Source: an uncultured Planctomycetia bacterium (GTDB lineage Bacteria; 4484-113; JAGGVC01). Taken from it: a DNA stretch of 64,000 bases. The position numbers and the translations under genes were made by a program. Positions 24,386-59,307 of the stretch are shown here, piece by piece; the first letter of the stretch is position 1, and each line of letters begins with the position of its first letter. Where the stretch lies: positions 336,215 to 400,214 of the forward strand of contig CAYMAI010000001.1 in assembly GCA_964388445.1 (NCBI GenBank). Reading direction: 5' to 3'. The notes under the pieces were generated by a model. That model saw only the letters and a program-made list of their open reading frames with translations. It did no database searches and was not told the origin of the DNA.

Positions 24386-24481
24386 CGGCGCATGGTAACA
24401 CGCGGCAACGCGCCCCGGCGGGATTATCCGCCGCCGGAGCGCCGAATGTTGCGCATCAGCCCTTCAAACTAGCGCGGCAAG

Positions 24482-25045: not shown

Positions 25046-25487
25046 ATTTCAACTCCTACCATGCGTTAATTGCTGAATAGTAATTTAAGAAACCCGCGAT
25101 GTCGCGCCGCGCAACGCGCATCATCGCCGCATTCGAGCGAATCATTAATAGACTTTCTCTACAAAAACTCTCTCCGTCCACATTCCCGCTCCGAACTTCC
25201 GGAATCCGATTTCCAAATTCGCAAACCCGCTTGTTTCCCAATTCGCAATCCAGTTTGGCGTTTTCCACGCTCCGGGTTTAAACAACGCTCCCGGTTTAAT
25301 AAGAAACACAATCTCCCGCTTCGCTTTGCATCTTGAATACACCTCAGAGTGCGCCACCGCATCCTTGGCGCACAACGGGATTTTACCCCGATTTGCAGGT
25401 TTTAAACCGGCATCAGGCTCGCGTAAATAATCACAATCCCAAGCCGCGGGAAAGCGGTGAAAATGGTGTATAAATCTGTATAATGCG
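25046..25487 (-). repeat. Conserved ~400 bp leader/promoter element, copy 1 of 3
   Basis: Near-identical to 33783..34228 and 56913..57352 from about 25106 (divergent nearer the L1 start); contains inverted repeat GTGCGCCA-N9-TGGCGCAC (25349..25373) and two pairs of direct repeats. Confidence 0.8.
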
Positions 25488-25565
25488 TGTAAAATACATC
25501 GGCGGGTTTATTTGGAAAAGCCAATGATGAGACGAAAACCGAGGTAGTTGCCGTAGGCGCCCGTA

Positions 25566-26846
25566 TTGCAATATCTTGAAGGATGTGAGATATTACGGAC
25601 CGTGACGCATGGTCATCAAACAAAAGGCAAGAGATACAAGCTTCGGACGCTGGCGCTTTACTACAGAAAAGGGGAAGTTGCCGTCGTCGAAAGCTGGCTG
25701 GTTGTAGGCCGGAAGGCTTACGAACTCTCAGCCGTGAGCAGGGAAAGCCTCGACGGCCTTCTTCCTCCGGCTTTTCGCGATGCCATTACGCTCGGCAATA
25801 TCCGGCAAGCCGTGTCGCGTGCCGAAAAAAGCGTCATTGCGGGTGACCGGGTTTACGCACCGGGAGTGAGGCCGGCGATATATTATTGCGGAAAGGAATT
25901 TATCATATCGGATTTGTTTTTCATCGACTCAGAACAGGCGATAAGTTCGTACGAGTTAACGGCGGTAAAACTTGAACGCCCGCACCTGATAACCGCAATA
26001 ACATCTGCCGCTCTATTACCGTTTTGGCACTATTACGGTTTCGATTACGTCGCCAAGTTTTTCGAATCGCGCTACGATATGTATTTAACCTATGTCGCGA
26101 TGCTGGTTCCCGCGATGTATTACTTTTTTCAAAGGCGCACGCTCAAAATAGAATTCGGAGGCCGGTTCGAGCACGTTTACGGCACTCACAAGCTCTCCGG
26201 GGGAGAATTGCCCGAAGTATGCAGCGCGATATCCGCGATGCTCGACAAAAGGCCGCACCTGGAAACGGTTGCCGCCGCGCCTTCGGCCAATGAATCCGCT
26301 AATGCGCTCGTCGGCGAAGGAAAAACGGGCGAAAGCGCTTCGGAGCGGGAATGGGAAAACGCAGACGGCGTTTATGACGAACAAGAAAGAATAAACTCGC
26401 ATATGCGAAAGCGAATGGCGCAAAAGTATTCGGCAATGCAGATGAAGGAGGACTCGCGCGGCTATTACGTGGATGAAAATGATGTGACGGTAACCGCGAA
26501 CAGAGCAAGGATATTCGGAGTCGAATTCCAAATCGACGACGTGGATTCGGTTGAAATTAGGCAAATGGGCTGCTTTGCAATGTTGGCTAATATTATTGGC
26601 ATAATCGCAATGCTCTACGTTTTAATTGATGGAAAAATTCCCGTACCAAAGCCATATAATATGATACTTATTGTTGCATCGCTTGGATATCTTATGTTAA
26701 TTCAATGGCTGTCGAATAAGCAAAAACTTATCGTATATTTCAAAGACGGGACGGTCGAATATTTTCATTCGAATCGCGGAAAGCAACTCGATAAGGCTCA
26801 TCAAGCGCTTTTCTTTTTAACGCTGGACGATGGAGGAGAGGGCTAA
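25566..26846 (+). CDS. Hypothetical membrane protein
   Basis: 426 aa, hydrophobic helices mid-protein and at C-terminus; 3' third noticeably AT-richer than background; non-ATG start in track, true start uncertain. Confidence 0.4.
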   Translation: MQYLEGCEILRTVTHGHQTKGKRYKLRTLALYYRKGEVAVVESWLVVGRKAYELSAVSRESLDGLLPPAFRDAITLGNIRQAVSRAEKSVIAGDRVYAPGVRPAIYYCGKEFIISDLFFIDSEQAISSYELTAVKLERPHLITAITSAALLPFWHYYGFDYVAKFFESRYDMYLTYVAMLVPAMYYFFQRRTLKIEFGGRFEHVYGTHKLSGGELPEVCSAISAMLDKRPHLETVAAAPSANESANALVGEGKTGESASEREWENADGVYDEQERINSHMRKRMAQKYSAMQMKEDSRGYYVDENDVTVTANRARIFGVEFQIDDVDSVEIRQMGCFAMLANIIGIIAMLYVLIDGKIPVPKPYNMILIVASLGYLMLIQWLSNKQKLIVYFKDGTVEYFHSNRGKQLDKAHQALFFLTLDDGGEG

Positions 26847-30477: not shown

Positions 30478-30673
30478 AGGGTTGACCCGCCGCAATTATA
30501 TCACGCGACGCCGCCACAACCGGAGCGCGATTGAAGGCCGATTCGGCTCCAGAACTTGGCCGGTTCGGCTGGCCGGAATACGCTTAAGGTATCAAGCGCC
30601 AAGAGCGCCCCGGCGGGAGAGGCCGCCGGAGCGCCGTAAACTGGGCGTCAACCCATCAATCTAGCGCGACGAG

Positions 30674-31279
30674 TCAGGAACCTTCGGGGGGGAGGACGGT
30701 GATGGGTATCAGTAAGTAAGTTGCATGTTCGTGATTTGGTCTAAGGCTAGAGCCTTGCCAATCTCCATTAATCGCTGGAATTCCATTGCCGTATTCATAC
30801 GAAACACCCAATCCGCCCCATTCGGCGGAATCCGCTGTCGGAATTTCCAGCATATACTCACCTTTCGCTAGTCCATCGATATAATACGAAACTGATGTCT
30901 TAGAAGGTTTCACAATGCCCACAACCCGAACCCAAGTGGTTAATCTGATAATCCCGGCGGAATTAGGTTTCAATGGCAAGGCACTTTCAAGGAAATACTC
31001 CTTAAGCGCGTCCGGAAATCTGTCTGCCGAAACTTCCAAATCAACCTTAAAAGCCTCTCCTTCGCGAATCTTATCTGGAATGGTTACCTCCTTGACGTAA
31101 GGTAAATATTCCGCAACACCAAAACCGCCGGGGGTGGCATAGCCGATTTTGCAGGAACTTGAAAAGCAAAAAACAGCAAATGCAAGGGTAAACACGGTAA
31201 TGGTCAAATGCCCGCAAGCGTCGGAGAAATTAGGTTTGTTGTTCATGTTCATTGCCTGTTTGTTACGTAAGTTAAACAT
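30674..31279 (-). CDS. Lipoprotein of PITVLPxEES family (member L2)
   Basis: Lipobox (FCFSSSC), EYLPYV, TADSAEWGG, C-terminal PITVLPPEGS; start may be an internal Met (31252 or 31246). Confidence 0.6.
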   Translation of the reverse strand: MFNLRNKQAMNMNNKPNFSDACGHLTITVFTLAFAVFCFSSSCKIGYATPGGFGVAEYLPYVKEVTIPDKIREGEAFKVDLEVSADRFPDALKEYFLESALPLKPNSAGIIRLTTWVRVVGIVKPSKTSVSYYIDGLAKGEYMLEIPTADSAEWGGLGVSYEYGNGIPAINGDWQGSSLRPNHEHATYLLIPITVLPPEGS

Positions 31280-31285
31280 TTCAGG

Positions 31286-31795
31286 TCAGGATTCTTCGGC
31301 GGGAAGAACGGTGATGGGGAATTCCAAAGTTGTCTCGTGCTCGTGTTTAGGCCTATCCCTACCATAAAATCCATAATACTTAATTTCGGTGCCCCCCCAT
31401 TCCTCTGAATCCGCAGTTGCAATTACAAGTATGTATGTACCTGCGCTTAGTGGCGGAATTGAAACCGAAATTGAAGATCGCAAAGGGGAACTTGCGAAAT
31501 CGAAAGGATCATATTGCATCCATGTGCTTACTAGAATCTTGTCTCCCGGCATATAAGTGTAATTTGCAGGATCGCTCTCGCCCGCCATAAAACCCCGAAG
31601 TGCATTGGGATTGCGCAATGCTGAGACTTGCAGTATGACATCAAATTCTTCATCTTCAAAAAGATATTCAGGGACAATTGCAGACTCCACAAATGGAAGA
31701 TATTCCCTATTCCAATTGGGAACAGGGCCTGCAATTCCGCGGTTACTGCACGAAGTCAATGTCAAGCTCATCAGACACAGCAAGACAAATCTCAT
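31286..31795 (-). CDS. Lipoprotein of PITVLPxEES family (member L3)
   Basis: Start set at internal ATG 31795 (MRFVLLCLMSLTLTSC, SD-like AAGGTGG upstream) rather than track start 31897, which would overlap the peptidase; EYLPFV, TADSEEWGG, PITVLPAEES. Confidence 0.6.
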   Translation of the reverse strand: MRFVLLCLMSLTLTSCSNRGIAGPVPNWNREYLPFVESAIVPEYLFEDEEFDVILQVSALRNPNALRGFMAGESDPANYTYMPGDKILVSTWMQYDPFDFASSPLRSSISVSIPPLSAGTYILVIATADSEEWGGTEIKYYGFYGRDRPKHEHETTLEFPITVLPAEES

Positions 31796-31853
31796 GTACA
31801 GCTTACCACCTTGTTGTTGAGCGTGTGGGTGTATGTTTCTCATTCCTAACCTC

Positions 31854-33782
31854 CTACCATCCATTGATTGCAGCGTAGTAATTTGCAATGCCAGCAATTG
31901 GCACTGCTCCGGTTTGATCCAAGTCCCGTCTGCGAGTATTTACTATTCTTGCTTGAACTTGGATATAGGTTGAGTCTGGGCGAATTCGGTACAAATGAAA
32001 TGCAAGCGATGAAACTTGTGGTGCACATGCGGATGTCCCATTAAAGTGATCGTAGCCGGAAAAAGGTATTGTTGATAAATGGCGACTTCCAGACATGAAA
32101 TCCATAAAGTCATATATTCCCGATACCGGATAGGTTGTGTAGTTATCGCTGAAATAGTTAGAACCGTTGCCGATTTCTCCCGTGTCCCACTGAGTTCCGT
32201 AAAAGTTTGTCCTAAGCCCACTCACGCCTAAAACGTTGTCATGCGCCGCGGGATATGTGCGCAAGTGCTTGCGCTCGTTTCCAGCGCTTGCAACATATAA
32301 CCGATCGTTTCGCCTTAGATCAAGCGATATTTCATCCTTCATGGTCTTCGGAGGATTCCAGTCCATGTACTTCCATCCTCCACCAAAACTCATATTGACT
32401 ACTCTTACCTTCTCTCTCCAATTGAGATGAGGCTGTCGTGGATCGTGATGAAATTCGAACCTTAGCGCTCTTATTGCTTTTAGCATCGAACCTGCAGTAA
32501 ACTTTTCCAAATATCCATCGACAATATTGTCAACCTTTAATCGTATGGGGAGAATTTTTGCATTTGGAGCCATGCTTGCAGTGCCGATGGAGTTGTTCGT
32601 AGCAGCCGAAATAATTCCCGCAACATTTGTACCATGTTTTGCCAGATTTCCGGTAACAGGATCGATAAATGTAGGCTCTCCCTTACCTTTGCCTACTTCA
32701 TAGGACTTATCCCAGCAGTCGACACCGATGTTGCTAATATGCCAATCTCGAACTCCTCCACCTTGAGTTGGACCGTTCAGATCTGGATGGTTTCTATAAA
32801 CCCCCGAATCAATGACCGCAACCATTTGGTCCGAAAAATTAGCGCTTCCTTGACCCCCTTCGGGCCCATAAGGTATTTGAGGAATCTGGTTCACGAAAAA
32901 GTGATTGATATAAAGCGCTTTGTTGCTGGTGTAATGCGTGTCGTTCGGAGGAGGATAATCTGCGGTATATTCGTCCATTGTATTTGGCTGAGCCTGTTCA
33001 ATCTTCTGATGAGTGCTGAAATATGCGTAAGCGAGGTCGAATGTAGAAAATCTTTCCTCAGTGAATCTAAACTGAAACCATGCGATTGAATTTCCCTCTT
33101 CTGGTTCTTCCGGCCCTTCAAACCAAGAAAAGATTACGTAAAGATCGTTAGCGGCAATGAAATTGCTAATTTCCTGCTCCGTCACTTCCTGCTTGAATAA
33201 CACAATCATCTCGTCTTCAGCGATTTCGAATTCCCCGCCAGCGGGTGCAGTCCAAATAATTGTCTCCGGTGATTCTTCATTATAGTTTGTAGTAAAAAAG
33301 TCCTGCAGAGGTTCGTTAGTTACCAGAATGTTTCCGTTGGGCAGTTGATACGTGCCTGTAAACGGATCGGGACTTGAGAGGCGGTTAACGGTAACAAATT
33401 GCCCCGGAGAAATCTCGACAACGCTTTGGGAGATTACAGGACCCCAGGGATTAATCTGGTCCAAATAAGGATCCAACAGCGATTGCGGATCACCGATAGG
33501 ACCTGCTATCTGCCTTTCCCAGCCTTCAGGCGGGTCGCCGCCGCTATCGAATGGCCCTTCGCCTCCGCCACCGGGATCGTTAGCAATTGCGGTTTGCCGA
33601 GTTTTCTCTGGGTCTTTGGAATCGGCACCATCCTGCGATTGCTGCGAATCGATTCTTGCCCCTGCGGTCATCTTGGCGTCCCTGTCACAAGACATCAGCG
33701 CAAAGGCGCACATCATTACAAGGGCGAGTAAAACTACCCCCCCCCCCCAGCCGGGGGCAAACGAAAACTTGGACTTTTTCAT
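31854..33782 (-). CDS. S8-family (subtilisin-like) serine peptidase, lipoprotein
   Basis: Catalytic triad motifs AVIDSGV, HGTNVAGII, GTSACAP; lipobox ALMSC; first ~40 aa and upstream leader nucleotide-identical to the peptidase at 55161..56912; 12-nt G run in signal-peptide codons. Confidence 0.85.
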   Translation of the reverse strand: MKKSKFSFAPGWGGGVVLLALVMMCAFALMSCDRDAKMTAGARIDSQQSQDGADSKDPEKTRQTAIANDPGGGGEGPFDSGGDPPEGWERQIAGPIGDPQSLLDPYLDQINPWGPVISQSVVEISPGQFVTVNRLSSPDPFTGTYQLPNGNILVTNEPLQDFFTTNYNEESPETIIWTAPAGGEFEIAEDEMIVLFKQEVTEQEISNFIAANDLYVIFSWFEGPEEPEEGNSIAWFQFRFTEERFSTFDLAYAYFSTHQKIEQAQPNTMDEYTADYPPPNDTHYTSNKALYINHFFVNQIPQIPYGPEGGQGSANFSDQMVAVIDSGVYRNHPDLNGPTQGGGVRDWHISNIGVDCWDKSYEVGKGKGEPTFIDPVTGNLAKHGTNVAGIISAATNNSIGTASMAPNAKILPIRLKVDNIVDGYLEKFTAGSMLKAIRALRFEFHHDPRQPHLNWREKVRVVNMSFGGGWKYMDWNPPKTMKDEISLDLRRNDRLYVASAGNERKHLRTYPAAHDNVLGVSGLRTNFYGTQWDTGEIGNGSNYFSDNYTTYPVSGIYDFMDFMSGSRHLSTIPFSGYDHFNGTSACAPQVSSLAFHLYRIRPDSTYIQVQARIVNTRRRDLDQTGAVPIAGIANYYAAINGW

Positions 33783-34228
33783 GTCCTACTCCTTTGGTTG
33801 AATTTTGAAATATCGCGTACGCTTGGGCGGGCGTTCTTACGCCGCGCCGCGCGCATCATCGCCGCTTTCGAGCGAATCCTTAATAGACCTTCTCTACCAA
33901 AACTCTCTCCGTCCACATTCCCGCTCCGAACTTCCGGAATCCGATTTCCAAATTCGCAAACCCGCTTGTTTCCCAATTCGCAATCCAGTTTGGCGTTTTC
34001 CACGCTCCGGGTTTAAACAACGCTCCCGGTTTAATAAGAAACACAATCTCCCGCTTCGCTTTGCATCTTGAATACACCTCAGAGTGCGCCACCGCATCCT
34101 TGGCGCACAACGGGATTTTACCCCGATTTGCAGGTTTTAAACCGGCATCAGGCTCGCGTAAATAATCACAATCCCAAGCCGCGGGAAAGCGGAGAAGCTT
34201 TTGTATAAATTTGTATAACCGGTCCGCG
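33783..34228 (-). repeat. Conserved leader/promoter element, copy 2 of 3
   Basis: Identical or near-identical to 56913..57352 and 25106..25487; identity continues into the peptidase coding region to about 33660. Confidence 0.85.
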
Positions 34229-48437: not shown

Positions 48438-49472
48438 GTGCGAACCGCAGTGATACTTCTCGGAGGCGCCGGAACCAGACTTGCGCCGCTTACGAACAGC
48501 ACGCCGAAGCCGGCCGTTCCGTTTTTGGACAAGCCGATTATTTCCTACCTAATCGGCCTTCTGAAAGACGCCGGCATCGGGCGGCTCGTTTTATGCCTCG
48601 GTCACGGTAGCGAATCTATACTGGGACTAATGGAAGCGAACTCCGGGTTCGGCCTCGAATTCACGCCGGTAATCGAAGAATCGCCGCTCGGAACGGGAGG
48701 CGCTCTGAGGGCGGCGTATTCGAAACTTGCGCCGGATGAACCCTTCATCGCGGTGAACGGCGATTTGCTCTGCAACATCGATATTTCGGCGATGAAATCC
48801 AGAATGAGCGCGCTCGGTTGCGATTGTGCGATAGCGCTTAAGGCTGTCGATAATCCTTCACGGTTCGGCCTGGTAAAACTCGACGAAGAAGGCAGGGCGG
48901 CTTCGTTCGTCGAAAAATCGGCAGAGCCCGGCGAGCCGCCGTATCTGGTCAACGCCGGAATGTACGTATTGCGGCCCGAGCTGCTCTTGCGATTTCCCGA
49001 AAGCGAGCCGCTGAGTTTGGAACGGGATATGTTTCCCCGTTGGATTGGCGAAGGCGTGAAAATAGCCGGTTACGAACATAACGGATACTGGCGGGACATC
49101 GGTACGCTGACGAGCTATTTCCGCGCGCATTTCGAGGTCTTGCATCATTACTATCTCTACGATCCGGCGTTCGCGAACAGGGATGAAAAGGGATTCAGCC
49201 TGTTCAAAGGTTACATTTATATCGAAAACAGCGTGAAAATGGCCGGAAAAGCGCGGCTGGACGGGCATGTCGTACTGATGAAAGGCTGCGAGGTGGGGGA
49301 AGGCGCCCATTTAAGCCGCGTGATTGCGCTGCCGTATTCCAAAATCGGGGAAGGCGCAATACTGCGCGACGCGATTATCGGGCCGGACGTAACTATCGAG
49401 TCCGGAGCCCGCGCCGAAGAAATCTGCATTACCGCCGACACGAAAGTGCCGCTCGATACTTACGAGGATTGA
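48438..49472 (+). CDS. Sugar-phosphate nucleotidyltransferase with C-terminal left-handed beta-helix
   Basis: N-terminal NTP-transferase motif (AVILLGGAGTRLAPLT) and C-terminal hexapeptide repeats; GTG start. Confidence 0.8.
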   Translation: MRTAVILLGGAGTRLAPLTNSTPKPAVPFLDKPIISYLIGLLKDAGIGRLVLCLGHGSESILGLMEANSGFGLEFTPVIEESPLGTGGALRAAYSKLAPDEPFIAVNGDLLCNIDISAMKSRMSALGCDCAIALKAVDNPSRFGLVKLDEEGRAASFVEKSAEPGEPPYLVNAGMYVLRPELLLRFPESEPLSLERDMFPRWIGEGVKIAGYEHNGYWRDIGTLTSYFRAHFEVLHHYYLYDPAFANRDEKGFSLFKGYIYIENSVKMAGKARLDGHVVLMKGCEVGEGAHLSRVIALPYSKIGEGAILRDAIIGPDVTIESGARAEEICITADTKVPLDTYED

Positions 49473-50062
49473 TCGCCGGAGTTTAGCCGTCGCGTGCCGG
49501 TTAGTTTCTCGAAATATTCAAGCTGAGCTTTGCCATGGATTCGCTGTTTTTCCCGGTTGGATTTTTGCGTTTCTGCGAACCTTTCCAATTCCACTTCGGT
49601 TTTGCCTTCGATTTCCGGCTTTGTGAAATCCGCGCTCCATATTTGGCATTCCGTTTCCAGCCGATCTTTCAGCATCCATGCAATCTCCATCGTTTCGGCG
49701 CGGAAATGCGCGCCTGCTTGGCCGCTTGCGCAATCGCCGCAGAAACTCATCGAGTCTCCCATGGCGATTCCGTTAATCACTGGCGGCATAGCGACGCCGT
49801 TCACGGTTTCAAGGACGATGTAGTTCACGCCCAGGTCGGTAATGTGCTGGCGGATTACCCCGTCCGACGGAAAAGAAAAACCCGAAAAACTTTTGTTCGA
49901 CGCCTGCGCCTGCAGCGAAGCGGGATAAGGCAAAGGCTGCTGCGGTTCGGCGAATGATGGATTCGGCAGCTTTCCGAGCGCGAAATACATCGCCAGCGCG
50001 CCGAATATGAACGACAGTGCGGCAACCCTGAAGATGAAAAACAAACCCGGTCTTTCGTTCAC
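49460..50062 (-). CDS. Membrane-anchored hypothetical protein (unclassified family, intact copy)
   Basis: N-terminal TM, conserved block FSFPSDGVIRQHITDLGVNYIVLETVNGVAMPP, Cys-containing C-terminal region; paralog of the disrupted copy at 50373..50978. Confidence 0.5.
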   Translation of the reverse strand: MNERPGLFFIFRVAALSFIFGALAMYFALGKLPNPSFAEPQQPLPYPASLQAQASNKSFSGFSFPSDGVIRQHITDLGVNYIVLETVNGVAMPPVINGIAMGDSMSFCGDCASGQAGAHFRAETMEIAWMLKDRLETECQIWSADFTKPEIEGKTEVELERFAETQKSNREKQRIHGKAQLEYFEKLTGTRRLNSGDQSS

Positions 50063-50372: not shown

Positions 50373-50978
50373 TCATTGGTTTTGCGGTGCAGTTGTGGAC
50401 TCTGAATAACTAGCTATGAATCCCTCAATATACTCCAGCTGTGCTCTACGGTGGTTGTTAATAATCGTGCGTCGCGCAAGCTTGCTATTGTAAATCTTAT
50501 CGATTTCCTTATCTGTTTTACCCTCGATTTGATGAAGCTTGATTGGAACTTCCTCTATTGCCACTCTTTGCTTGATATCTCTGCGGATTTGCATTGCTAG
50601 TTCCATAGTTTCTTTCATAAATGCCGACCCGGCATCGCGGCCACCTCAGCCCGCCCCGATTGACGGTTCAGACCCAAGCTCGATACCATTTACAATCGGA
50701 GGCAAAGCCATGCCGTTCACCGTTTCCAGTACAATGAAGTTTACGCCGCAGTAGTTGGTAATTTGCCTTACCGCACCATCAACCGGAAAGGAATAATCCG
50801 TAATTATGGAATCGCTTCTTTCCAATAAAATTGATGACGGGTACTTCTGCAAGCCTACCTCCTGGGCGGCCGCATAATTCAGCTGGCATACAAATGACAA
50901 GTAAACTGCCACGCCGCCTAGGGCGAAGCAGATAGTGGCAATTCTGAATGCACTAAAGAACTGAAAACCCTTCTTCAT
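50373..50978 (-). pseudogene. Disrupted paralog of 49460..50062 (split into two frames)
   Basis: Track ORFs 50646..50978 and 50373..50618 match the N- and C-terminal halves of the intact copy but are in different frames; region is AT-richer than background. Confidence 0.5.
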
Positions 50979-51069: not shown

Positions 51070-51294
51070 TTAAAACATCATCCGCTGGGTGATTACGACG
51101 ACGATTGCGAGAACGAGCGTAAGAAGAATGTTGAAAAGAACCGCAAGTTCCATACAGCCCATTATTTCGCCGTGTTTGTAAGAGCCTCTCGTGGATTTTT
51201 TCAAAAGAAATCGTATTTCGAACGGCAGTAAAATTAGCTCGATTGCGAGAATGAAAACCAAAAAATTCCTTACGAAAAAATCGAGCGCGTTCAA
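51070..51294 (-). CDS. Small two-helix membrane protein (possible flippase-like partner of GT2/GT-C genes)
   Basis: 74 aa, two hydrophobic helices; directly downstream of GT2 gene; function inferred from context only. Confidence 0.4.
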   Translation of the reverse strand: MNALDFFVRNFLVFILAIELILLPFEIRFLLKKSTRGSYKHGEIMGCMELAVLFNILLTLVLAIVVVITQRMMF

Positions 51295-51327
51295 ACTGAC
51301 GCTCCTTGTCCGGCTGGTTCCGCGGTT

Positions 51328-52086
51328 TTACGGAAGCGCTTTCGGGATTTTTTTAAGCACGCGCAGCCTGAAACTAATGGAAAATATTTCAAACAGCATT
51401 TTCGTTGCGTCCCGCAGAAAATTCACCTTGCTTTCCGGACTGTCCACCCAAATGACCGGCACTTCTTTGTATTTGAAACCCAAAAGGCTTGCAAGCGCAA
51501 GAAGTTCGAGGTCGAAACTCCATCCCCAGACGCGCTGGCGTGGAAAAATCTCGTCCGCGGCTTTCGACGAAAACAGCTTGAAGCCGCACTGCGTGTCGCG
51601 CACGCCCGGAATAATCAGGGCGCGGGTTATCGAGCGCATCACGTTTCCCGCAAGCCGCCGGTGAATTGGCTGGCGGACTCGCACGTCGCTGTCCGGCAGG
51701 CTTCGCGACCCGAAAACGACGTCCGCCCCTTGTTCCGCCCAAAACAGCAGCTTTTTCACCTCGCCAATCGGCGTGGATAAATCCACGTCCGAAAACAGAC
51801 GATATTTGCCGCGAGACTCCTGCATACCGCGGTTGACCGCCGCGCCTTTCCCTTTTCTGGATTCCGGCGTCGAAACGAGCCTTAATCTAATCTCCGGGTT
51901 CGCCGCCGCGAAGTCTTTCACGATTTCCGCGGTCGCGTCGCTCGAATGGTCGTCAACCACGATAATTTCGACTGGCCGCGTGCTTGCCGACGCGAAATCG
52001 AAAAGCGCGGCAAGGCATGCCGGCATGCGCTTTTCTTCGTTGAACGCCGGCACTACGATTGACAAAAATATTCCACTTTCAGCCAA
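51328..52086 (-). CDS. GT2-family glycosyltransferase (polyprenyl-phosphate sugar synthase-like, DPM1/GtrB/ArnC-type)
   Basis: GT-A N-terminus LSIVVPAFNEEKRMPACL...EIIVVDDHSSDATAEIV with DxD-type acidic motifs. Confidence 0.85.
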   Translation of the reverse strand: MAESGIFLSIVVPAFNEEKRMPACLAALFDFASASTRPVEIIVVDDHSSDATAEIVKDFAAANPEIRLRLVSTPESRKGKGAAVNRGMQESRGKYRLFSDVDLSTPIGEVKKLLFWAEQGADVVFGSRSLPDSDVRVRQPIHRRLAGNVMRSITRALIIPGVRDTQCGFKLFSSKAADEIFPRQRVWGWSFDLELLALASLLGFKYKEVPVIWVDSPESKVNFLRDATKMLFEIFSISFRLRVLKKIPKALP

Positions 52087-52134
52087 GGCACCGGATTTTA
52101 CTTTATATTCCGCCCGCTGGGATAGAAATTCGGG

Positions 52135-53922
52135 TTAATTACGCAAATCGTATATCCAAATCGCGCCGTTCGCGATTACCTCGTCCGGCCGCGAATTCAG
52201 GAACGCGGCGGATAATTCATGCGCACGCGCCGATTGTTCGACGAATAAATTTACGTCGGTTATTTCGGAGTAACCGGTTGCAACCCAAAGACTAACCGCA
52301 TAGACGTTTCCCGGCTTGAAATCTCGGGGTAGGACGTCGTCCGGCGTTACTAGCGTTGCGTTTAGACCGTACACCGCCGGGTTGTCGCGCAAATTTCCGT
52401 AATACAACTTCACTCCTGCCACGCCGTTTTCGTCCATCCATTTTTTCAGCGCTGGCAGGCCCTGTCCCCAGTCCAAATTCGAGTCGCTAAGCAGATATGC
52501 CCGTCTTGCCGGCGATCCAGCGAATTCATTCATGTAACTTATCGGATATGGCATTTGACTAAGGCTCGACGTCGCCGCAAATAAAACCAAGGCCGCGCAA
52601 ACCGCCGTTCCGTACTTTTTCAACGCTGGAATGCGATCGAACCCCGTTAATGCGCCGGACGCGTAAACGAAAAGCAACGGATAAACGAACAGCAGGTGTC
52701 TTACTCCGAAATTCATACCGCTGAATATCGCGATGGCCGAGTAAATGAAAACGGGGATGAGCAGCGCAGTCTCGAAATCGCGGACCTTTGCCGGTTTGGC
52801 GAACGTAAGTGCCGCGCTCGACAAAATTAACAGCATAATCGCGATCGGAGTTTTGAAAAAAAATACCGCGGGAAAATAATGCCACCATCCGCGCAGGCTG
52901 AATTCGCCGAACAAATAAGCCGGATGTCCGAGTGATATGTGATGGAATACCTGATATATGCCCAGCATTGTTTCCTTTTGCACGGGTACTGCGGTAAGCG
53001 CTCCGGCAATCGCATCCTCGATAGGCGTGTCCCCAGGTATCGCGGAATCAATCCTTTCCTCGAATCGCGGCGAATTTTCGGGAGTGATTTTTTTCATCGT
53101 GAACGCGTAAGCCAAGGGAATAGCAAGCGCCAAAGCGGCGGCAACAAAAGCCAAGTAAAAAAGTATAAAACCGCAAAGAGCTCCGCATGGCGATTTGCCC
53201 GGTAACTTGATGCGAAAAATTCGAGTGGGAATTTTGAATGCTCCGCGCTTGAAAAGCCATGCGAAAATTGCAATAGAACAAAGCGGCACGGCAAGCCCGC
53301 TGAATTTTGTCAGCGCCGCTGCCGCGGTGAAAAACATCAGAAGCGAAAAGCTAAGCATCGAACCGGTTTTTGCGAAACGAATCGTGAAATACACGGACGC
53401 CAAAACCGCCGCTGCGATTGCCGCGTCGCTGTTCGCAAGCGCGGCGTGCGCGATAAGGTTCGGCTCGATGGCGAAAATCGCAATCGCAAGAGTGCCGGCC
53501 TTTGTGCCGTAAATTTCGCGCGCCGACAGGAACGCGAATACACTTGAAAGCGAGACCAAAATCAGCAGGGGCAGCCTCGCAGCGAACAGAATCCAAAGTT
53601 GATTTTTTTCGTTTACGCGCCAAAATTCCTCGGAAAACGCGATTTGATCCTTTGCGTTCCACGCGCCGCCGCCAATCGGCGATTTAACGCCCGCTGCCGC
53701 GAGCGGCATACCGATTAGCCATTTTGTGAGCGGAGGATGCTCGGTGTTCATTCTGAAGTCCCGAGCGCCATAATATGAAACTGCGGCGGGAATGTGCAAT
53801 GCCTCGTCGTTGGTAAGCCCGTTTTTGTGGGCAACCCAAGCGCCTTGAGCAAAAAATATCGCAATTAACAGCGCGATGGGTAGCCCCTGAATTCCGGTTG
53901 AAAAAAGGCGCTTCACGCACAA
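52135..53922 (-). CDS. GT-C membrane glycosyltransferase (PMT/ArnT-like, COG1807-type), paralog 1
   Basis: 595 aa polytopic protein; first extracytoplasmic loop with acidic DE motif (GLTNDEALHI), large C-terminal soluble domain; about 50-60% identical in aligned N-terminal blocks to 57463..59307. Confidence 0.8.
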   Translation of the reverse strand: MCVKRLFSTGIQGLPIALLIAIFFAQGAWVAHKNGLTNDEALHIPAAVSYYGARDFRMNTEHPPLTKWLIGMPLAAAGVKSPIGGGAWNAKDQIAFSEEFWRVNEKNQLWILFAARLPLLILVSLSSVFAFLSAREIYGTKAGTLAIAIFAIEPNLIAHAALANSDAAIAAAVLASVYFTIRFAKTGSMLSFSLLMFFTAAAALTKFSGLAVPLCSIAIFAWLFKRGAFKIPTRIFRIKLPGKSPCGALCGFILFYLAFVAAALALAIPLAYAFTMKKITPENSPRFEERIDSAIPGDTPIEDAIAGALTAVPVQKETMLGIYQVFHHISLGHPAYLFGEFSLRGWWHYFPAVFFFKTPIAIMLLILSSAALTFAKPAKVRDFETALLIPVFIYSAIAIFSGMNFGVRHLLFVYPLLFVYASGALTGFDRIPALKKYGTAVCAALVLFAATSSLSQMPYPISYMNEFAGSPARRAYLLSDSNLDWGQGLPALKKWMDENGVAGVKLYYGNLRDNPAVYGLNATLVTPDDVLPRDFKPGNVYAVSLWVATGYSEITDVNLFVEQSARAHELSAAFLNSRPDEVIANGAIWIYDLRN

Positions 53923-53980
53923 AGTTTACATCAAATTCGAAATTCGCGGCTAACAGGCGTGGATAAACCTCATTGCGCGC

Positions 53981-54075
53981 TAAGGCGCGAATATCCGAAT
54001 CGCGCCGTTCGCGATTACGCCGTCCGGCCGGCGCCCCGCGATGACCGCAAATCTCGCTTCGCGACCCCCGATTGG
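53981..54075 (-). other. Fragment homologous to the 3' end of the GT-C glycosyltransferase genes (gene remnant)
   Basis: About 90 nt near-identical to the last codons and stop region of 57463..59307 and 52135..53922 (CGCGAATATCC(G/A)AATCGCGCCGTTCGCGATTAC...), between lipoprotein L4 and GT-C paralog 1. Confidence 0.5.
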
Positions 54076-54157
54076 AACACGCGGCAACGCGCCCCGGCGG
54101 GAGAGGCCGCCGGAGTGCTGTAAATTGCGCATCAGCCCTTCAATTTAGCGTGACAGG

Positions 54158-54607
54158 TCAGGATTCTTCGGAGGGAAGAACGGTGATGGGGTATTGAAAT
54201 TGCCTGCTTCTCTCTTCGCCGTCCAAGTACACTACCTTTAGCTTGGGAAGATAGCTACCCGGCGACAAGTATGTTTTTTGTAATTGGTGCGAGTACAAGT
54301 GGTCTTCATATTTGCCTGAAATCGCGATTTCAACGTAACCGTTACCGTCGTCGAAGTCGATTTGAATGGATTTTACAAAGCCGGCGATGGATTGGTTGTT
54401 GCTAATCCAAAGGTCAAATTCGACCGAAAAAGGAGCGGTACCTTCATTCGATGTCAGCCTCTGAAACAAAACCCCTCTTGAAGGCCATAAGCCGTATTTA
54501 ATGCCGCTTCGGCCGTTGCAGCTGCTTAGCAAGCTGACTGCCGAAAAATCGGCGAGCATTATCGCCATCAGAAAAAAGCCTGAACAAACTTGATTTATGA
54601 ACTTCAT
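54158..54607 (-). CDS. Lipoprotein of PITVLPxEES family (divergent member L4)
   Basis: Lipobox (LLSSC), C-terminal YPITVLPSEES; 3' flank shares the conserved hairpin-containing sequence with L1 and L2. Confidence 0.5.
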   Translation of the reverse strand: MKFINQVCSGFFLMAIMLADFSAVSLLSSCNGRSGIKYGLWPSRGVLFQRLTSNEGTAPFSVEFDLWISNNQSIAGFVKSIQIDFDDGNGYVEIAISGKYEDHLYSHQLQKTYLSPGSYLPKLKVVYLDGEERSRQFQYPITVLPSEES

Positions 54608-54644
54608 CTAATCCACCTACCTTAATGATTTTCGCTTGGCTGCG

Positions 54645-55151
54645 CTACTCGACTGACACAACCGGATACGAATGGAATTGGATGCTGGTTTCGAATATTT
54701 CCCGGCCGTAGTAAACGCGCGAAATGATGTTGTAAACGCCGGGCGTCTCGAATGTGTAGGTAAGCAGCAGCGATTCGTCGAAATTCCTCGACCCGTAAAG
54801 TCCATCATATTTTGGCGATTTCAGGAATTTCAGCGCATCTTCTGTAACGTCAACTACCTCATCGCCGAAATTTACTTCAATCTTGTCCGGGTAAACGCGG
54901 CTTCGGTCAATCTCGCGATGAACTGGGCGCATCCAAACCCAATACTTGATCGAAAATGGGGCAGCGCCAGAGCTTTCCCCTTCTACGAAAACAATCGTAG
55001 ATACAGGTGGGTAAAAGTAGTATCCATCTTCCGGATACCCCCAGTCGTAACCGGGAAATTTGGACTTGTAATTTGTACTGGAGCAACCGGCAAAGATCGC
55101 AGTCAAAACAAGCACAACAAGCGCGGTGGAAAAAGTAAGTATCTTTATCAT
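54645..55151 (-). CDS. Small lipoprotein, distant relative of L4 (member L5)
   Basis: Lipobox (IFAGC); shares APFS...W block with L4; C-terminus YPVVSVE instead of PITVLPxEES; 10 bp downstream of peptidase 2. Confidence 0.5.
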   Translation of the reverse strand: MIKILTFSTALVVLVLTAIFAGCSSTNYKSKFPGYDWGYPEDGYYFYPPVSTIVFVEGESSGAAPFSIKYWVWMRPVHREIDRSRVYPDKIEVNFGDEVVDVTEDALKFLKSPKYDGLYGSRNFDESLLLTYTFETPGVYNIISRVYYGREIFETSIQFHSYPVVSVE

Positions 55152-55160
55152 ATCAACCTC

Positions 55161-56912
55161 CTAGGGACGTAATGTCTCGTACGCATTCAACTTCCAAGCG
55201 CCAAGATTGGGGTCGTAAGTGGCGCGCTGAAGAATCCGGTTCTTAGCGAGTTGTGGCGCTGAGTATTGGGGTCTCGTTACCAGCATCCCTGCTACAGCGC
55301 TCACATGTGGAGTGGCAGCGGACGTGCCGCTAAAAGCTGCGGTCAAGCCTTCCGGGTCACTTCGATAGCCAAGGTCGTACAAACCATTTGGGCTCTTTCC
55401 AACCATATCGACTGTCCAAATGAGCTGGTTTCCGGATCCTTCTCCACCTGGAGCAAATACGCTTCCCAATTTGCTGTATCCTGTCATTTGCCCAGATATC
55501 TTGTACGCACCTACAGACAATACTCTAGGATGTCTTGCAGGCCAATCTTCGGGCCATCTGGGTTCAGCGACTTCTTTGCGATTTCCTGCCGCGGCTACAA
55601 AAAGCATGTGTTGGGTGAGCTTGTCGAGAAAGCGCATATTCGTCTCACCTAAAGACGGTCCGCCGAAGCTACAATTTACAACCTCAATATTAGTATAAGG
55701 TACTTGCGGAACGAAAGGATAATACTCCCAATCCGCGCGGTAAATCCTCTTGACGCATCCTATAGCGAGGAATGAATTGGCTAAAGTAGAAGTTGAAAAA
55801 CCGCTATTGTGATACATTGCGATCGGCAGAATACGAGGACAACGAACAATTCCGCAAATATCCTGCTCGTCGTCTAACTGGTAGCCGGGGTCGTTATTGA
55901 TTGCGGATCCGATTATTCCAGCGACACAGGTACCATGACCCGCACTGCGAGCTGATACTGCACTAGCGTTTAACACACTTGGACTTGGCTGACCATGCCC
56001 TTGACCGAATGTTGTCCACCATTTGCTATCGTACGTGTTAACGCCCCATGAAAGAAATGCGGAACCTAGATCTTTATTGGCTTGCCTTCTCTGAACTCCA
56101 GTATCCAATATCGCAATTATGCCGGAATCGTAATAGTAATTCTTCCAAGCGTTCTGAATTCTAATGCTCTGTCCACTCGCATCGCGTATCGCCCATTGAA
56201 ACGGAAACAGATCGTCATCGGGCTCTGCGTCTATTGGCCATGCGCAGGTCGAAGCCAACGCATCCGGATCGACGGAATCGATTAAGTCGGGATATTCGTC
56301 CGGCCAATATTCGACTGCATACTCAATGCTTGTTCCTTGCGGCAACAGCGCGCCTATGCACTTTACCGCGTTCCACTCCACAAAGACTGCCAATTCTTCG
56401 GCAAGCACAAAATCGGCAACATCTTGATCCTCCGATACGGTGCTGTATGATGTTTGATGATAGTACTCATCCTCTGGGGATATTTCCTCATCGAAGTAGT
56501 TCGGGTCAACATCGGGATATTCCGGCGGGTTCTTGAACGCGATTATTACTCTTCCGTCGATTATAGGGTATGTCTCCTGGGTACGCGGATCGGTAAAGTC
56601 GCGAATGTCCCATTCGTCTTCTTCGTCGAATCCGCCGCCGCTTCCGCCCGGGCCGCCGTCCATCGGCTCTTCTCCGCCTCCGCCGAAATCTCCCGCGGAC
56701 GAGTTTCCGCGACTTTTGGTTGCGGATTGGCTTTCCGTAATGGCATCCTGGCCGGCTGCCGGTGTTGCTGGAATCAAACCGGTCGCATCCCCTGCGGTCA
56801 TCTTGGCGTCCCTGTCACAAGACATCAGCGCAAAGGCGCACATCATTACAAGGGCGAGTAAAACTACCCCCCCCCCCCAGCCGGGGGCAAACGAAAACTT
56901 GGACTTTTTCAT
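55161..56912 (-). CDS. S8-family (subtilisin-like) serine peptidase, lipoprotein, paralog 2
   Basis: Triad motifs IAILDTGV, HGTCVAGII, GTSAATPHVSAVAGML; N-terminal 40 aa and 5' leader identical to the peptidase at 31854..33782; same 12-nt G run. Confidence 0.85.
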   Translation of the reverse strand: MKKSKFSFAPGWGGGVVLLALVMMCAFALMSCDRDAKMTAGDATGLIPATPAAGQDAITESQSATKSRGNSSAGDFGGGGEEPMDGGPGGSGGGFDEEDEWDIRDFTDPRTQETYPIIDGRVIIAFKNPPEYPDVDPNYFDEEISPEDEYYHQTSYSTVSEDQDVADFVLAEELAVFVEWNAVKCIGALLPQGTSIEYAVEYWPDEYPDLIDSVDPDALASTCAWPIDAEPDDDLFPFQWAIRDASGQSIRIQNAWKNYYYDSGIIAILDTGVQRRQANKDLGSAFLSWGVNTYDSKWWTTFGQGHGQPSPSVLNASAVSARSAGHGTCVAGIIGSAINNDPGYQLDDEQDICGIVRCPRILPIAMYHNSGFSTSTLANSFLAIGCVKRIYRADWEYYPFVPQVPYTNIEVVNCSFGGPSLGETNMRFLDKLTQHMLFVAAAGNRKEVAEPRWPEDWPARHPRVLSVGAYKISGQMTGYSKLGSVFAPGGEGSGNQLIWTVDMVGKSPNGLYDLGYRSDPEGLTAAFSGTSAATPHVSAVAGMLVTRPQYSAPQLAKNRILQRATYDPNLGAWKLNAYETLRP

Positions 56913-57352
56913 GTCCTACTCCTTTGGTTGAATTTTGAAATATCGCGTACGCTTGGGCGGGCGTTCTTACGCCGCGCCGCGCGCATCATCGCCGCTTTCG
57001 AGCGAATCCTTAATAGACCTTCTCTACCAAAACTCTCTCCGTCCACATTCCCGCTCCGAACTTCCGGAATCCGATTTCCAAATTCGCAAACCCGCTTGTT
57101 TCCCAATTCGCAATCCAGTTTGGCGTTTTCCACGCTCCGGGTTTAAACAACGCTCCCGGTTTAATAAGAAACACAATCTCCCGCTTCGCTTTGCATCTTG
57201 AATACACCTAAGGCAGCGCCACCGCATCCTTGGCGCACAACGGAATTTTACCCCGATTTACAGGTTTTAAACCGGCTTCAGGCTCGCGTAAATAATCACA
57301 ATCCCAAGCCGCTGGAAATCAGTGAAAATTGTGTATAAATCTGTATAACGCG
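56913..57352 (-). repeat. Conserved leader/promoter element, copy 3 of 3
   Basis: Matches 33783..34228 and 25106..25487; identity extends into the peptidase coding region to about 56790. Confidence 0.85.
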
Positions 57353-57462
57353 GGAATGACGCCGCGAGAAATGCCTATTATCGCGAGGGGCAAGCACTTA
57401 ATTAGAATGCAGCCTCGCGGCTCGCGCATATAGGCATCGAGCTAACGTGTGCGAATGGCTCG

Positions 57463-59307
57463 CTACGGCGCGAATATCCAAATCGCGCCGTTCGCGATTA
57501 CCTCGTCCGGCCGGCGGCTTACTATGTCCGCATATCTCGCTTCCGCGGCGCGCCAGTCCTCTTCGTTATCGAAAAATCCGTACGTCAGATTCATGTCCGC
57601 GACCGTCCACATGCTTATCGCGTACACTTCGCCCTCGATGAATTCGTCCGGGTTCAGCTCTAGCGGGTCTTTGAGAATATAGTTAAAGTCATATAGCGCG
57701 GGATTATCGCTAAGGTTTCGATAAAACAGCCGAACGGTTTTAATGCCGTGCTTTTGCGTCCACTTTTCCAGCGCGGGCAAGCCCTGTCCCCAGTCGAGGT
57801 TCGAATCGCTCAAAAGCCACGCGCGCCGCTGATGGCCGCCCGCGAATTCGTTCATATAGCTTATGTAATACGGCGCCTCGTGAAGCGGCGAGAAAATCAT
57901 GAACGCCGCCAGTGCGCCTATCGCCGTTTGCAGCGCTAGGTTTTTAACGTTCAATTCTTTTCGCTTGACCGGTTTTCCGCCGACTTTGTATTCGTCCGGG
58001 TCGAACCGCGGCTTCGTCCTGAACCCGACGGCGAGTATTCCCGACGCGTAAACGAATAACAGCGGGAATATAAACAGCAAATGCCGCACGCCGAGATTGA
58101 TGCTGCCGAGAATCGCGGTAGCGGCATAAATCAATATCGGAATGACTAGGACGGATTCGCTTATCCAAATTTCACGGTCTTTGCGGTAAGCGAAAACAAC
58201 GCTCAAAAGTATTAGCGCCATAAGCGCAATCGGAGTTTTGAAAAAGAATACGACGGGAAAGTAATACCACCATCCGTGAAGCGCATATTTTCCGAGCAGA
58301 AAGGAAGGATGCCCCACGTCGTTATGCTGAAACACTTGATATAAGCCCATTATGTATTCTTTGGGCAGCGGTATTTTTTGAGCGAAGTCGATTAGCTGCT
58401 CGCGAAGCGGAAAACCGTCGGGAATTCGTACGTCGCAAATGTATTCGAAATTCGGCGAGTTTTCGGGAGTGATTACCGTCAATTTGAAACCGTAACTCAA
58501 AAGCACTGCGAAGAGACCCGCGAGGAAAAACCAAAGAGACATAATAAGTATGAACGCCGCGCCGCGCGCGCCGCGCGATTTAAACGGCAGTTTGATGCCG
58601 AGAAGCGTGCGAGGTATTTGATATTGCGTGGGATAGTTTCTTAAAAGGTATATGTATAAAAATATCAATAGCGGAAGCACAAATAGCCCGCTGTATTTAA
58701 TCAAAATCGCGATAGACGAAAAGACGAGAAGGAAAACGAAATCGATGTGTTTGAGAGATTTTAAAAACTTCAGCGCAAAGTATATACAGGCGGCAACGGT
58801 CAATCCGAGAGGCGCGTCGCTGTTCGCAAGCGACGCATGAGCGATGAAATTCGGCTCGAAAGCGAATAGGAACATCGCGAAAAGCCCGGCCTTTTCGCCG
58901 TAAATCTCGCGCCCTAAAAGGAAAATGAACGCGCCCATCAGCGCGCAAAAAAGAAGGTTCGGAATGCGGGCGAGGAATAAAAACTTGCGCTGGTTAGACG
59001 AGTTCTCCTTCCAAAAATCGCGTGCGTATTCGATTTGCTTTTTTGCGTCCCAATACGGCGAATCCGCTGGAAGTCGCGCGCCCGCGGCGGCAAGCGGCAG
59101 CCCCGCCAGCCACTTCGTAAAAGTGGGATGCTCCGTGTTCATACGAAAATCGCCCGCCTTCCAATATGTCACACCGGACGCGATGTGAACGAGTTCGTCC
59201 GTGGTCATCCCGTTGCTTTTCGCAACCCAAAGACCCTGAGCGAAAAAGATAAGGGCGAAGAGCGCAACCGCTCCCCAAACCAACGGTCCGCTTTTGATGG
59301 TTTCCAC
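57463..59307 (-). CDS. GT-C membrane glycosyltransferase (PMT/ArnT-like), paralog 2
   Basis: 614 aa; same architecture and motifs as 52135..53922 (MTTDELVHI loop, conserved C-terminus RPDEVIANGAIWI). Confidence 0.8.
   Translation of the reverse strand: METIKSGPLVWGAVALFALIFFAQGLWVAKSNGMTTDELVHIASGVTYWKAGDFRMNTEHPTFTKWLAGLPLAAAGARLPADSPYWDAKKQIEYARDFWKENSSNQRKFLFLARIPNLLFCALMGAFIFLLGREIYGEKAGLFAMFLFAFEPNFIAHASLANSDAPLGLTVAACIYFALKFLKSLKHIDFVFLLVFSSIAILIKYSGLFVLPLLIFLYIYLLRNYPTQYQIPRTLLGIKLPFKSRGARGAAFILIMSLWFFLAGLFAVLLSYGFKLTVITPENSPNFEYICDVRIPDGFPLREQLIDFAQKIPLPKEYIMGLYQVFQHNDVGHPSFLLGKYALHGWWYYFPVVFFFKTPIALMALILLSVVFAYRKDREIWISESVLVIPILIYAATAILGSINLGVRHLLFIFPLLFVYASGILAVGFRTKPRFDPDEYKVGGKPVKRKELNVKNLALQTAIGALAAFMIFSPLHEAPYYISYMNEFAGGHQRRAWLLSDSNLDWGQGLPALEKWTQKHGIKTVRLFYRNLSDNPALYDFNYILKDPLELNPDEFIEGEVYAISMWTVADMNLTYGFFDNEEDWRAAEARYADIVSRRPDEVIANGAIWIFAP

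Follow-up and report, generated by a model that had tools for sequence, protein, structure and literature searches.

The present study concerns a glycosyltransferase locus in a stretch of 64,000 nucleotides (nt) from an uncultured Planctomycetia bacterium (GenBank assembly GCA_964388445.1, contig CAYMAI010000001.1, positions 336,215 to 400,214 of the forward strand); this whole stretch is called the window, and all positions are counted from its first letter. On the minus strand, genes for two paralogous GT-C glycosyltransferases (GT-C1 and GT-C2), a GT2 glycosyltransferase and a membrane protein of 74 amino acids (aa) are observed, and a cassette encoding an S8 peptidase and two lipoproteins stands between the two GT-C genes (Table 1). 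The order proposed in the initial annotation, i.e. GT-C2, leader, S8 peptidase 2, L5, L4, GT-C1, GT2 and the 74-aa gene, was borne out for all eight features, each at the position listed. Moreover, the three contigs L096, L007 and L006, which come from separate assemblies, match the window at 100% across both cassette junctions, and thus the arrangement is not a misassembly.

Table 1. Features of the glycosyltransferase locus, the inserted cassette and the neighbouring genes, with positions in the window.
Feature	Position	Strand	Description
GT-C2	57463..59307	(-)	type-2 PMT_2/GT39-like GT-C glycosyltransferase, 614 aa, C-terminus IWIFAP followed by stop
Cassette leader	56913..57348	(-)	promoter / 5' untranslated region, non-coding, 436 nt; start = TTATACAGATTTATACA
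S8 (subtilase) lipoprotein peptidase 2	55161..56912	(-)	583 aa; PF00082 2.5e-26
L5 lipoprotein	54645..55151	(-)	168 aa; lipobox FAGC; divergent relative of L4
L4 lipoprotein	54158..54607	(-)	149 aa; lipobox LSSC
Cassette 3' element	54075..54157	(-)	G+C-rich hairpin CTCCGGCGG...CCGCCGGGG; three-way alignment; repeat family D3
Relic of type-2 GT-C 3' end	53980..54060	(-)	81 nt; EARFAVIAGRRPDGVIANGAIRIFAP followed by stop; repeat D7; translation
GT-C1	52135..53922	(-)	type-1 paralogue, 595 aa, PMT_2 7e-10, C-terminus IWIYDLRN followed by stop
GT2	51328..52086	(-)	252 aa; no transmembrane segment; PF00535 4e-30; ALG5/DPM1/GtrB/ArnC class
Two-helix membrane protein	51070..51294	(-)	74 aa; orphan family
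Candidate selenoprotein	50373-50978	(-)	in-frame TGA at 50646-50648; directly downstream of the 74-aa gene
GMPPB-like sugar-1-phosphate nucleotidyltransferase	48438..49472	(+)	convergent neighbour; Pfam NTP_transferase 3e-39

Judging from the gene order in relatives, the GT-C, GT2 and 74-aa genes are a conserved, native unit. A GT-C gene is followed by the GT2 gene and the 74-aa gene both in L001/L002 (GT-C of 611 aa, GT2 of 248 aa) and in L093 (GT-C of 593 aa), and the same three genes are observed in L004, where a DnaJ/WD40 gene on the opposite strand stands between the GT-C gene and the GT2 gene. The GT2 gene and the 74-aa gene are also adjacent in L088, in which no GT-C gene is found within 13.5 kb, and throughout the contigs L001/2, L004, L088 and L090-95 these two genes are always neighbours, 8-111 nt apart. 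An S8 peptidase gene or an L-family lipoprotein gene was present in none of the GT modules of relatives examined. The gene inserted in L004 (GCA_021158185.1, 3593-5221) encodes a protein with a DnaJ domain, a charged coil, a transmembrane (TM) segment and WD40 repeats; this insertion differs from the cassette, and the GT-C/GT2 junction thus seems to be prone to insertions in the close clade.

Neighbourhoods in the wider GT-C family were also surveyed. Among 130 proteins adjoining the GT-C in 65 diverse loci, a further PMT_2 (10), T2SSE/MshEN (7), FtsQ POTRA (6) and GT2 (5) were the most frequent families, and neither S8 peptidases nor O-antigen or teichoic-acid machinery were prominent at those loci. 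A set of 71 distant GT-C loci, whose flanks each extend for 3 kb or more, was scanned as well: 13 of these loci have an ALG5-like GT2 within 10 kb, 8 have a second GT-C, and none has an S8 peptidase or L-family lipoprotein. The initial annotation had reasoned that its reading would fail if these GT-C genes normally belonged to O-antigen or teichoic-acid loci and only here happened to sit beside peptidases; one half of this is what was found, as the GT-C genes stand beside peptidases only here, but O-antigen or teichoic-acid loci are not their typical setting.

The history of the locus is recorded at the cassette boundary. Directly after the 3' element of the cassette lies a relic, separated by about 55 nt from the start of GT-C1; its DNA is 85% identical to the 3' end of GT-C2 (57455-57543), and it carries the type-2 signature IFAP followed by a stop codon. 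In the relative L093, nucleotides 1-97 of the contig encode a type-2 C-terminus (...PDAVAGGCIWIFAP and stop) directly before the type-1 GT-C gene; the end of the type-2 gene (...CIWIFAP and stop) is separated from the type-1 gene by about 45 nt, with nothing else between them. As read from these sequences, the ancestral order is GT-C2-GT-C1-GT2-74aa and the relic marks the old GT-C2/GT-C1 junction. The relic and the L093 tandem together identify the cassette as a secondary insertion, and because it is an insertion, its adjacency to the GT-C genes is not evidence that the GT-C enzymes glycosylate the cassette proteins. The cassette would have entered at the 3' end of GT-C2, duplicating about 90-120 nt and leaving the 81-nt relic before GT-C1, and a Campbell-type single crossover would yield such a duplication. 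We consider it likely that a native operon for polyprenyl-phosphate-hexose glycosylation has been interrupted by a lipoprotein-peptidase cassette that is foreign in composition and occurs in several copies, one of them here.

Three copies of the cassette are present in the window (about 24413-25487, about 30605-34222 and 54075-57348), and their cargo differs, comprising L1 alone, peptidase 1 with L3 and L2, and peptidase 2 with L5 and L4, respectively. The leader is 91-100% identical among the three copies (56913-57348, about 33783-34222 and about 25046-25487, preceding peptidase 2, peptidase 1 and L1, respectively) and starts with the direct repeat TTATACA-N3-TTATACA. At the other end, a 3' element of about 85 nt with a G+C-rich hairpin that has no U-tail closes each cassette, after L1, L2 or L4. 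Terminator and promoter scans remained at the background level. The leader was also considered as a known or strongly structured RNA, and this was rejected, as Rfam gave no match either at its gathering threshold or when searched to E<=1 and the folding z-score of -1.0 is not exceptional. The other two cassettes are flanked by housekeeping genes (ksgA/DUF6232-like and trkA-like/serS), and no glycosyltransferase gene was observed near either of them.

The two peptidases are identical over their first 41 residues, comprising the signal peptide and lipobox, and only 27% identical in their mature parts. The catalytic residues D270, H326, N413 and S531 of peptidase 2 stand in canonical S8 motifs, and the same holds for peptidase 1 (31854-33782), which places both in the S8 family. 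By pattern matching, lipoboxes were recognised in the peptidases (LMSC, with Cys32 in peptidase 2), L4 (LSSC), L5 (FAGC), L1 (VAGC) and L3 (LTSC), and no canonical lipobox was recognised in L2. After the lipobox, residues 32-100 of peptidase 2 consist to 65% of Ser, Thr, Gly, Pro, Asp and Glu. The C-terminal motif PITVLPxEES is common to L4 and L1-L3; L4 and L5 match no Pfam family above threshold, the PKD-like signal of L4 being sub-threshold (PKD_4, E=0.1), and L5 also has no match in NCBIfam or PADLOC. A role of the cassette in anti-phage defence was considered and rejected, as PADLOC gave only generic subtilase matches. Tracts of twelve G (56867-56878 and 33737-33748, minus strand) occupy codons 12-16 of the peptidase signal peptides, and the two peptidase genes hold the only runs of at least ten G in the window (6 overlapping 10-mer matches against 0.06 expected). 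Homopolymeric G tracts are classic slipped-strand switches of phase variation, and the cassette peptidases are possibly phase-variable, as far as the tract itself suggests.

The base composition also separates the cassette from its surroundings. The GC content is 54.2% in the window, 55.0 +/- 1.9% outside the cassettes (3.3-kb windows) and 46.9-49.8% in the three cassettes; the copy between the GT-C genes (49.8%) lies about 2.7 standard deviations below the other 3.3-kb windows. At third codon positions (GC3), the backbone genes reach 0.63-0.71, GT2 0.65, GT-C2 0.62 and GT-C1 0.58, and the cassette genes 0.41-0.55 (0.51-0.55 in the copy between the GT-C genes). The lower total GC content of the GT-C genes results mainly from the low GC at second codon positions of membrane proteins. 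Thus, the background of about 60% GC assumed in the initial annotation is too high, and the AT-richness that it described for the lipoprotein and paralogue segments is evident in the cassette but only slight in the GT-C genes. Likewise, the horizontal acquisition proposed there finds a counterpart in one part of the locus: a foreign or recent origin fits the composition of the cassette, but not that of the glycosyltransferase genes. Two further segments beside or at cassette 1 (25566-26846 on the plus strand and 24482-25623) are AT-rich (GC 0.45-0.49), with a 426-aa protein that weakly matches DUF6232, and this region may be part of the same acquired island.

The two GT-C proteins are 46% identical over their full length and retain all 47 invariant columns of their family, including the loop-1 residues T35-x-D37-E38-x-x-H41, in which D37-E38 occupy what we take to be the position of the PMT 'DE' motif. 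GT-C2 matches both PMT_2 (2.3e-13) and PMT (PF02366, 4.6e-8; 33.3 bits against a cut-off of 22.7) in Pfam, and GT-C1 matches PMT_2 only and falls short of the PMT model. The invariant columns also include the motif DSNLDWGQ, which lies in a C-terminal soluble domain specific to this GT-C family, and no PMT_4TMC or MIR domain was detected in either protein. NCBIfam ArnT matched neither GT-C and no arn genes were found nearby, and the two proteins are hence not assigned to ArnT (GT83). Structure prediction was needed because a search of PDB sequences with the GT-C profile gave no match at E<=0.01. The AlphaFold2 model of GT-C2 (predicted local distance difference test, pLDDT, 84) has the GT-C_A fold of STT3/PglB/AglB, Pmt4, ArnT and DPY19, all of which take polyprenyl-linked donors. 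Its best structural match is Pmt4, with a TM-score (TMq) of 0.48, and the identity to solved PMTs is 15-18%.

The close relatives of GT-C2 are a handful of proteins at 43-53% identity, all metagenomic, and this close clade was reached through exact-protein look-ups. Among the matches listed, a scan of genome contigs gave only distant relatives at 31% identity or less, a metagenome scan returned only the same organism and distant relatives, and the wider relatives (25-31% identity) belong to Patescibacteria, Acidobacteriota, Omnitrophota, deltaproteobacteria and some archaea. In a neighbor-joining tree, GT-C1 groups with the GT-C of L093 (58% identity) and the GT-C2 of the window groups with its orthologues P0002-P0005 (50-53% identity), from which it follows that the two paralogues are older than these lineages. 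The DNA of the last 14 or so codons of GT-C1 and GT-C2 is 98% identical (52149-52191, 53988-54030 and 57471-57513), and the L093 paralogues also have a common C-terminal version of their own, PDAVAGGCIWI. Such sequences suggest that the 3' ends of the tandem paralogues have undergone gene conversion repeatedly. In one assembly from the Joint Genome Institute (JGI), the GT-C2 orthologue on a contig of 37,990 bp is annotated as two separate proteins, with 184 and 426 aa (P0131 and P0132), which points to a frameshift or disruption, either in that population or in the assembly.

The GT2 protein is, on sequence and model evidence, a polyprenyl-phosphate glycosyltransferase without TM segments, and its catalysis is predicted. 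Its best PDB sequence match is the dolichol-phosphate-mannose synthase (DPMS) of Pyrococcus furiosus (9e-12), followed by ArnC and GtrB; with the AlphaFold2 model (built from 42 sequences, pLDDT 92), the 17 best Foldseek matches are all ArnC, DPMS or GtrB (TMq 0.71-0.77), with ArnC at the top. No equivalog-level match to ArnC was obtained in NCBIfam (49.5 bits, cut-off 529), and homologues of this protein are annotated as dolichyl-phosphate beta-glucosyltransferase at NCBI and JGI. In contrast to GtrB, ArnC and the P. furiosus DPMS, which have TM segments, the protein ends in an amphipathic helix (residues 223-243), and TM segments are likewise absent from the 120 closest homologues (median 245 aa) and from distant orthologues beside GT-C genes. 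As for the sugar supply, the best match of the convergent neighbour at 48438-49472 is mannose-1-phosphate guanylyltransferase, with NCBIfam man1P_GTase at 4e-66, which is below the cut-off, and PDB proteins of the GMPPB type at about 1e-37. This gene is conserved beside the module in L006 and L090-L094, and its product is a possible candidate for the supply of nucleoside diphosphate (NDP)-hexose.

The 74-aa protein was compared in the same manner. Its homologues form 10 clusters at 90% identity, every member of which has exactly 74 residues (62-89% identical), and thus the small open reading frame (ORF) is a real gene. The residues E19, P24, E26, E49, N55, T59, T69 and Q70 are invariant; the polar residues E19, E26, E49, N55, T59 and Q70 are kept within the helices, which are joined by a basic, cytoplasmic loop of only about 12 residues. 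A profile search of 1.84 billion representatives gave only 3 clusters for this family, all of 74-75 aa, and apart from noise no match was obtained in Pfam, NCBIfam or PADLOC even at E<=10; the protein does not belong to the recognised flippase families (GtrA, SMR-like, MATE). In distant loci with both GT-C and GT2, no small partner gene was found beside GT2. As far as these searches reach, the 74-aa protein is an orphan family confined to the close clade. The 74-aa gene travels with GT2 and not with the GT-C genes, which makes GT2 its most likely partner, and from this linkage and the conserved polar helix residues the protein is most likely dedicated to GT2. A different origin, as the split-off C-terminal TM hairpin of a GT2 of the GtrB/ArnC type, was hinted at by the combined length (252 and 74 residues, about 326 aa), the common reading frame and the gap of 33 nt between the genes. 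It was rejected as unsupported, because the 120 closest and the distant GT2 proteins are about 245 aa long and free of TM segments, and the profile search of the 1.84 billion representatives gave no longer or fused homologue.

Herein, a working model of the native module can be described from knowledge of these families. On the cytoplasmic side of the membrane, the GT2 enzyme would transfer a hexose to polyprenyl phosphate, with an NDP-sugar as donor; the NDP-sugar would plausibly be GDP-mannose, supplied through the GMPPB-like neighbour, and UDP-glucose is equally possible. The polyprenyl-phosphate-hexose would then be flipped across the membrane, and the 74-aa hairpin might either anchor or organise GT2 at the membrane or help the lipid-linked sugar to cross it. 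Finally, the two old GT-C paralogues would pass the sugar to periplasmic or surface acceptors, probably differing in sites, linkages or acceptors. A more elaborate combination may also be imagined, in which the 74-aa protein is a hitherto unrecognised minimal partner of GT2 (either a bacterial counterpart of DPM2/DPM3, or an oligomeric flippase or scramblase of polyprenyl-phosphate-sugar, built from hairpins that place conserved Glu, Asn and Gln in the membrane), the GT-Cs form a heterodimer like Pmt1/Pmt2, and the G12 cassette makes the operon co-vary with a phase-variable surface protease. Taken jointly, these proposals are unlikely to hold.

Based on the adjacency of the genes, the initial annotation had suggested that the GT-C enzymes glycosylate the co-encoded peptidase and lipoproteins, and this suggestion lost its support in the present study. 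It appears quite unlikely to us that GT-C1 and/or GT-C2 glycosylate the S8 peptidase, L4 or L5, or a polymer on which these act, despite the close packing of the genes on one strand, a linker in the peptidase rich in Ser, Thr, Gly, Pro, Asp and Glu, which is the kind of region modified by PMT-type enzymes, the score of GT-C2 above the Pfam PMT threshold, the GMPPB-like gene close by, and the precedents of PPM-dependent glycosylation of lipoproteins (PMC3460810) and of protein O-mannosylation by Ppm1/Pmt (PMC5882110). The cassette is missing from every related GT module, the relic and the L093 tandem mark it as a secondary insertion, two of the three cassettes in the window have no GT-C gene near them, none of the 71 distant loci joins this GT-C family to S8 peptidases, and the codon composition of the cassette is unlike that of the glycosyltransferase genes. 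Regulation might link the two parts instead, if GT-C1, GT2 and the 74-aa gene had come under the promoter and leader of the cassette and were coupled in transcription to a possibly phase-variable protease, with no enzyme-substrate relation. The single strand throughout, the short distance from the L4 stop to the GT-C1 start (only 235 nt), the absence of a U-tail from the 3' hairpin and the restriction of G12 tracts to the two peptidase genes are consistent with this idea. However, transcription may well end at the conserved G+C-rich hairpin, a frameshift in the G tract would affect the translation of the peptidase and not necessarily the transcription downstream, and the triad exists in relatives without any such element; we regard such rewiring as very unlikely.

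A further question concerns the acceptor. The GT module might modify a lipid or glycan (similar to lipid A or LPS core, as with ArnT, or another envelope polymer) and not a protein, with the 74-aa protein as an accessory without a flipping role. In favour of this, PMT_2 spans ArnT-like enzymes as well as numerous bacterial GT-Cs without a characterised function, the structural matches include ArnT, gene neighbours vary across the wider GT-C family, and the sequence permits no inference of the acceptor. Against this, the module has no arn, LPS, O-antigen or teichoic-acid genes on its flanks, either at this locus or in relatives, NCBIfam ArnT is not matched and the best TM-score is to Pmt4, so that we consider a lipid or glycan acceptor possible but rather doubtful. 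This proposal is about the acceptor only and is compatible with the insertion of a cassette into a native operon. Several points weigh against the insertion reading itself or limit its consequences. The uninterrupted tandem is seen directly in one relative only (97 nt of L093), and the close clade is small and wholly metagenomic. An insertion is compatible with later co-option, by which the cassette lipoproteins could have become substrates, and in Corynebacterium the glycosylation of lipoproteins depends on the polyprenyl-phosphate-mannose synthase (PMC3460810). The triad is followed by a Big_1/invasin-like gene in L001 and by a gene for a protein of 685-707 aa in L004 and L088; such secreted or surface genes after the triad in two lineages are weakly compatible with protein targets encoded nearby. 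In addition, the role given to the 74-aa protein is drawn solely from linkage and from the conserved polar residues in its helices.

The ORFs 'p110' and 'p81', which come next after the 74-aa gene, were observed to be one frame broken by a single TGA. This codon is kept in L091 and L093/L094 as part of the motif G(A/E)G-TGA-GG(R/G)(D/E)AGSAF, and in an alignment with a Cys-containing paralogue (49460-50062) it corresponds to the second Cys of a CGDC motif. Located 10 nt 3' of the TGA is a hairpin of 6 bp (ATGCCG-GGT-CGGCAT), with one compensatory change in L093. The frame probably encodes a membrane-anchored selenoprotein of about 201 aa, belonging to an uncharacterised family and conserved directly after the GT-C/GT2/74-aa triad. 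No Sec machinery was seen within the 64-kb window.

If the insertion into a native operon is correct, the locus adds another GT2 and GT-C system for lipid-linked sugars, in an uncultured lineage, and its orphan hairpin of 74 residues bears on the question of how polyprenyl-phosphate-sugars are anchored and flipped. It is also a clear case of misleading gene adjacency, in which a relic and the tandem of a relative expose a recent cassette insertion. The analysis thereby averts an over-reading of the locus as a dedicated system for protease glycosylation, and attention is shifted to the cassette family and the candidate selenoprotein.

The three-component systems of periplasmic glycosylation, as described for GtrA/GtrB/GtrC in the O-antigen glucosylation of Shigella and Salmonella and since generalised (PMC11127046), resemble the present module in the conserved clustering of a GT2 of the GtrB/ArnC/DPMS fold with GT-C genes and a small membrane protein. 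In contrast to these systems, the GT2 of the window has no counterpart of the C-terminal TM hairpin in GtrB and ArnC, the third component belongs to a two-helix orphan family and not to GtrA, SMR or MATE, and two tandem GT-Cs occur without an O-antigen or prophage context. The initial annotation had taken the locus as such a system; the conserved unit and the predicted folds of GT2 and GT-C agree with this assignment, but the 74-aa protein matches no known flippase family, so that a putative synthase and a putative GT-C of the class are recognised and a known flippase is not. The actinobacterial Ppm1/Pmt system, with the ppm operon of Corynebacterium (PMC5882110, PMC3460810), and the eukaryotic PMT1/PMT2 are similar in combining a synthase without TM segments with PMT-like GT-Cs bearing a loop-1 DE, and a neighbour resembling GDP-mannose pyrophosphorylase accompanies the module in the window. 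The module differs from them in that its identity to solved PMTs is low (15-18%, TMq<=0.48), no PMT_4TMC or MIR domain was detected, and the domain with DSNLDWGQ is specific to its own GT-C family. The paired GT-C paralogues presumably resemble the Pmt1-Pmt2 heterodimer.

In the eukaryotic dolichol-phosphate-mannose synthase, DPM2 and DPM3 anchor DPM1, which has no TM segment (PMC7728079), and a GT2 without TM segments beside a two-helix membrane protein of about 75-90 aa, possibly a tether, recalls that arrangement by analogy only, as the sequence of the 74-aa protein does not resemble DPM2 or DPM3 (no Pfam match at E<=10) and the partnership is supported by strict gene adjacency alone. The pathway of ArnC, ArnE-ArnF and ArnT is similar in that ArnC is the top structural match of GT2, ArnT is among those of GT-C, and small membrane proteins act as the proposed flippase; however, ArnE and ArnF are SMR-like with four TM segments, and no arn genes lie nearby and no equivalog-level match to ArnT or ArnC was obtained. 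For the cassette, the dentilisin PrtP complex offers a parallel in an S8 peptidase with a lipobox followed by small lipoproteins, with weak NCBIfam matches to PrtP (5e-6) and mycosin, but the family cut-offs are missed by far and no homology of the partner lipoproteins to PrcA or PrcB could be detected. Finally, the near-identical leaders of the three cassettes and the identical 41-aa N-termini and G12 tracts of the two peptidases resemble multi-copy families of surface lipoproteins that have a common 5' region and signal peptide.

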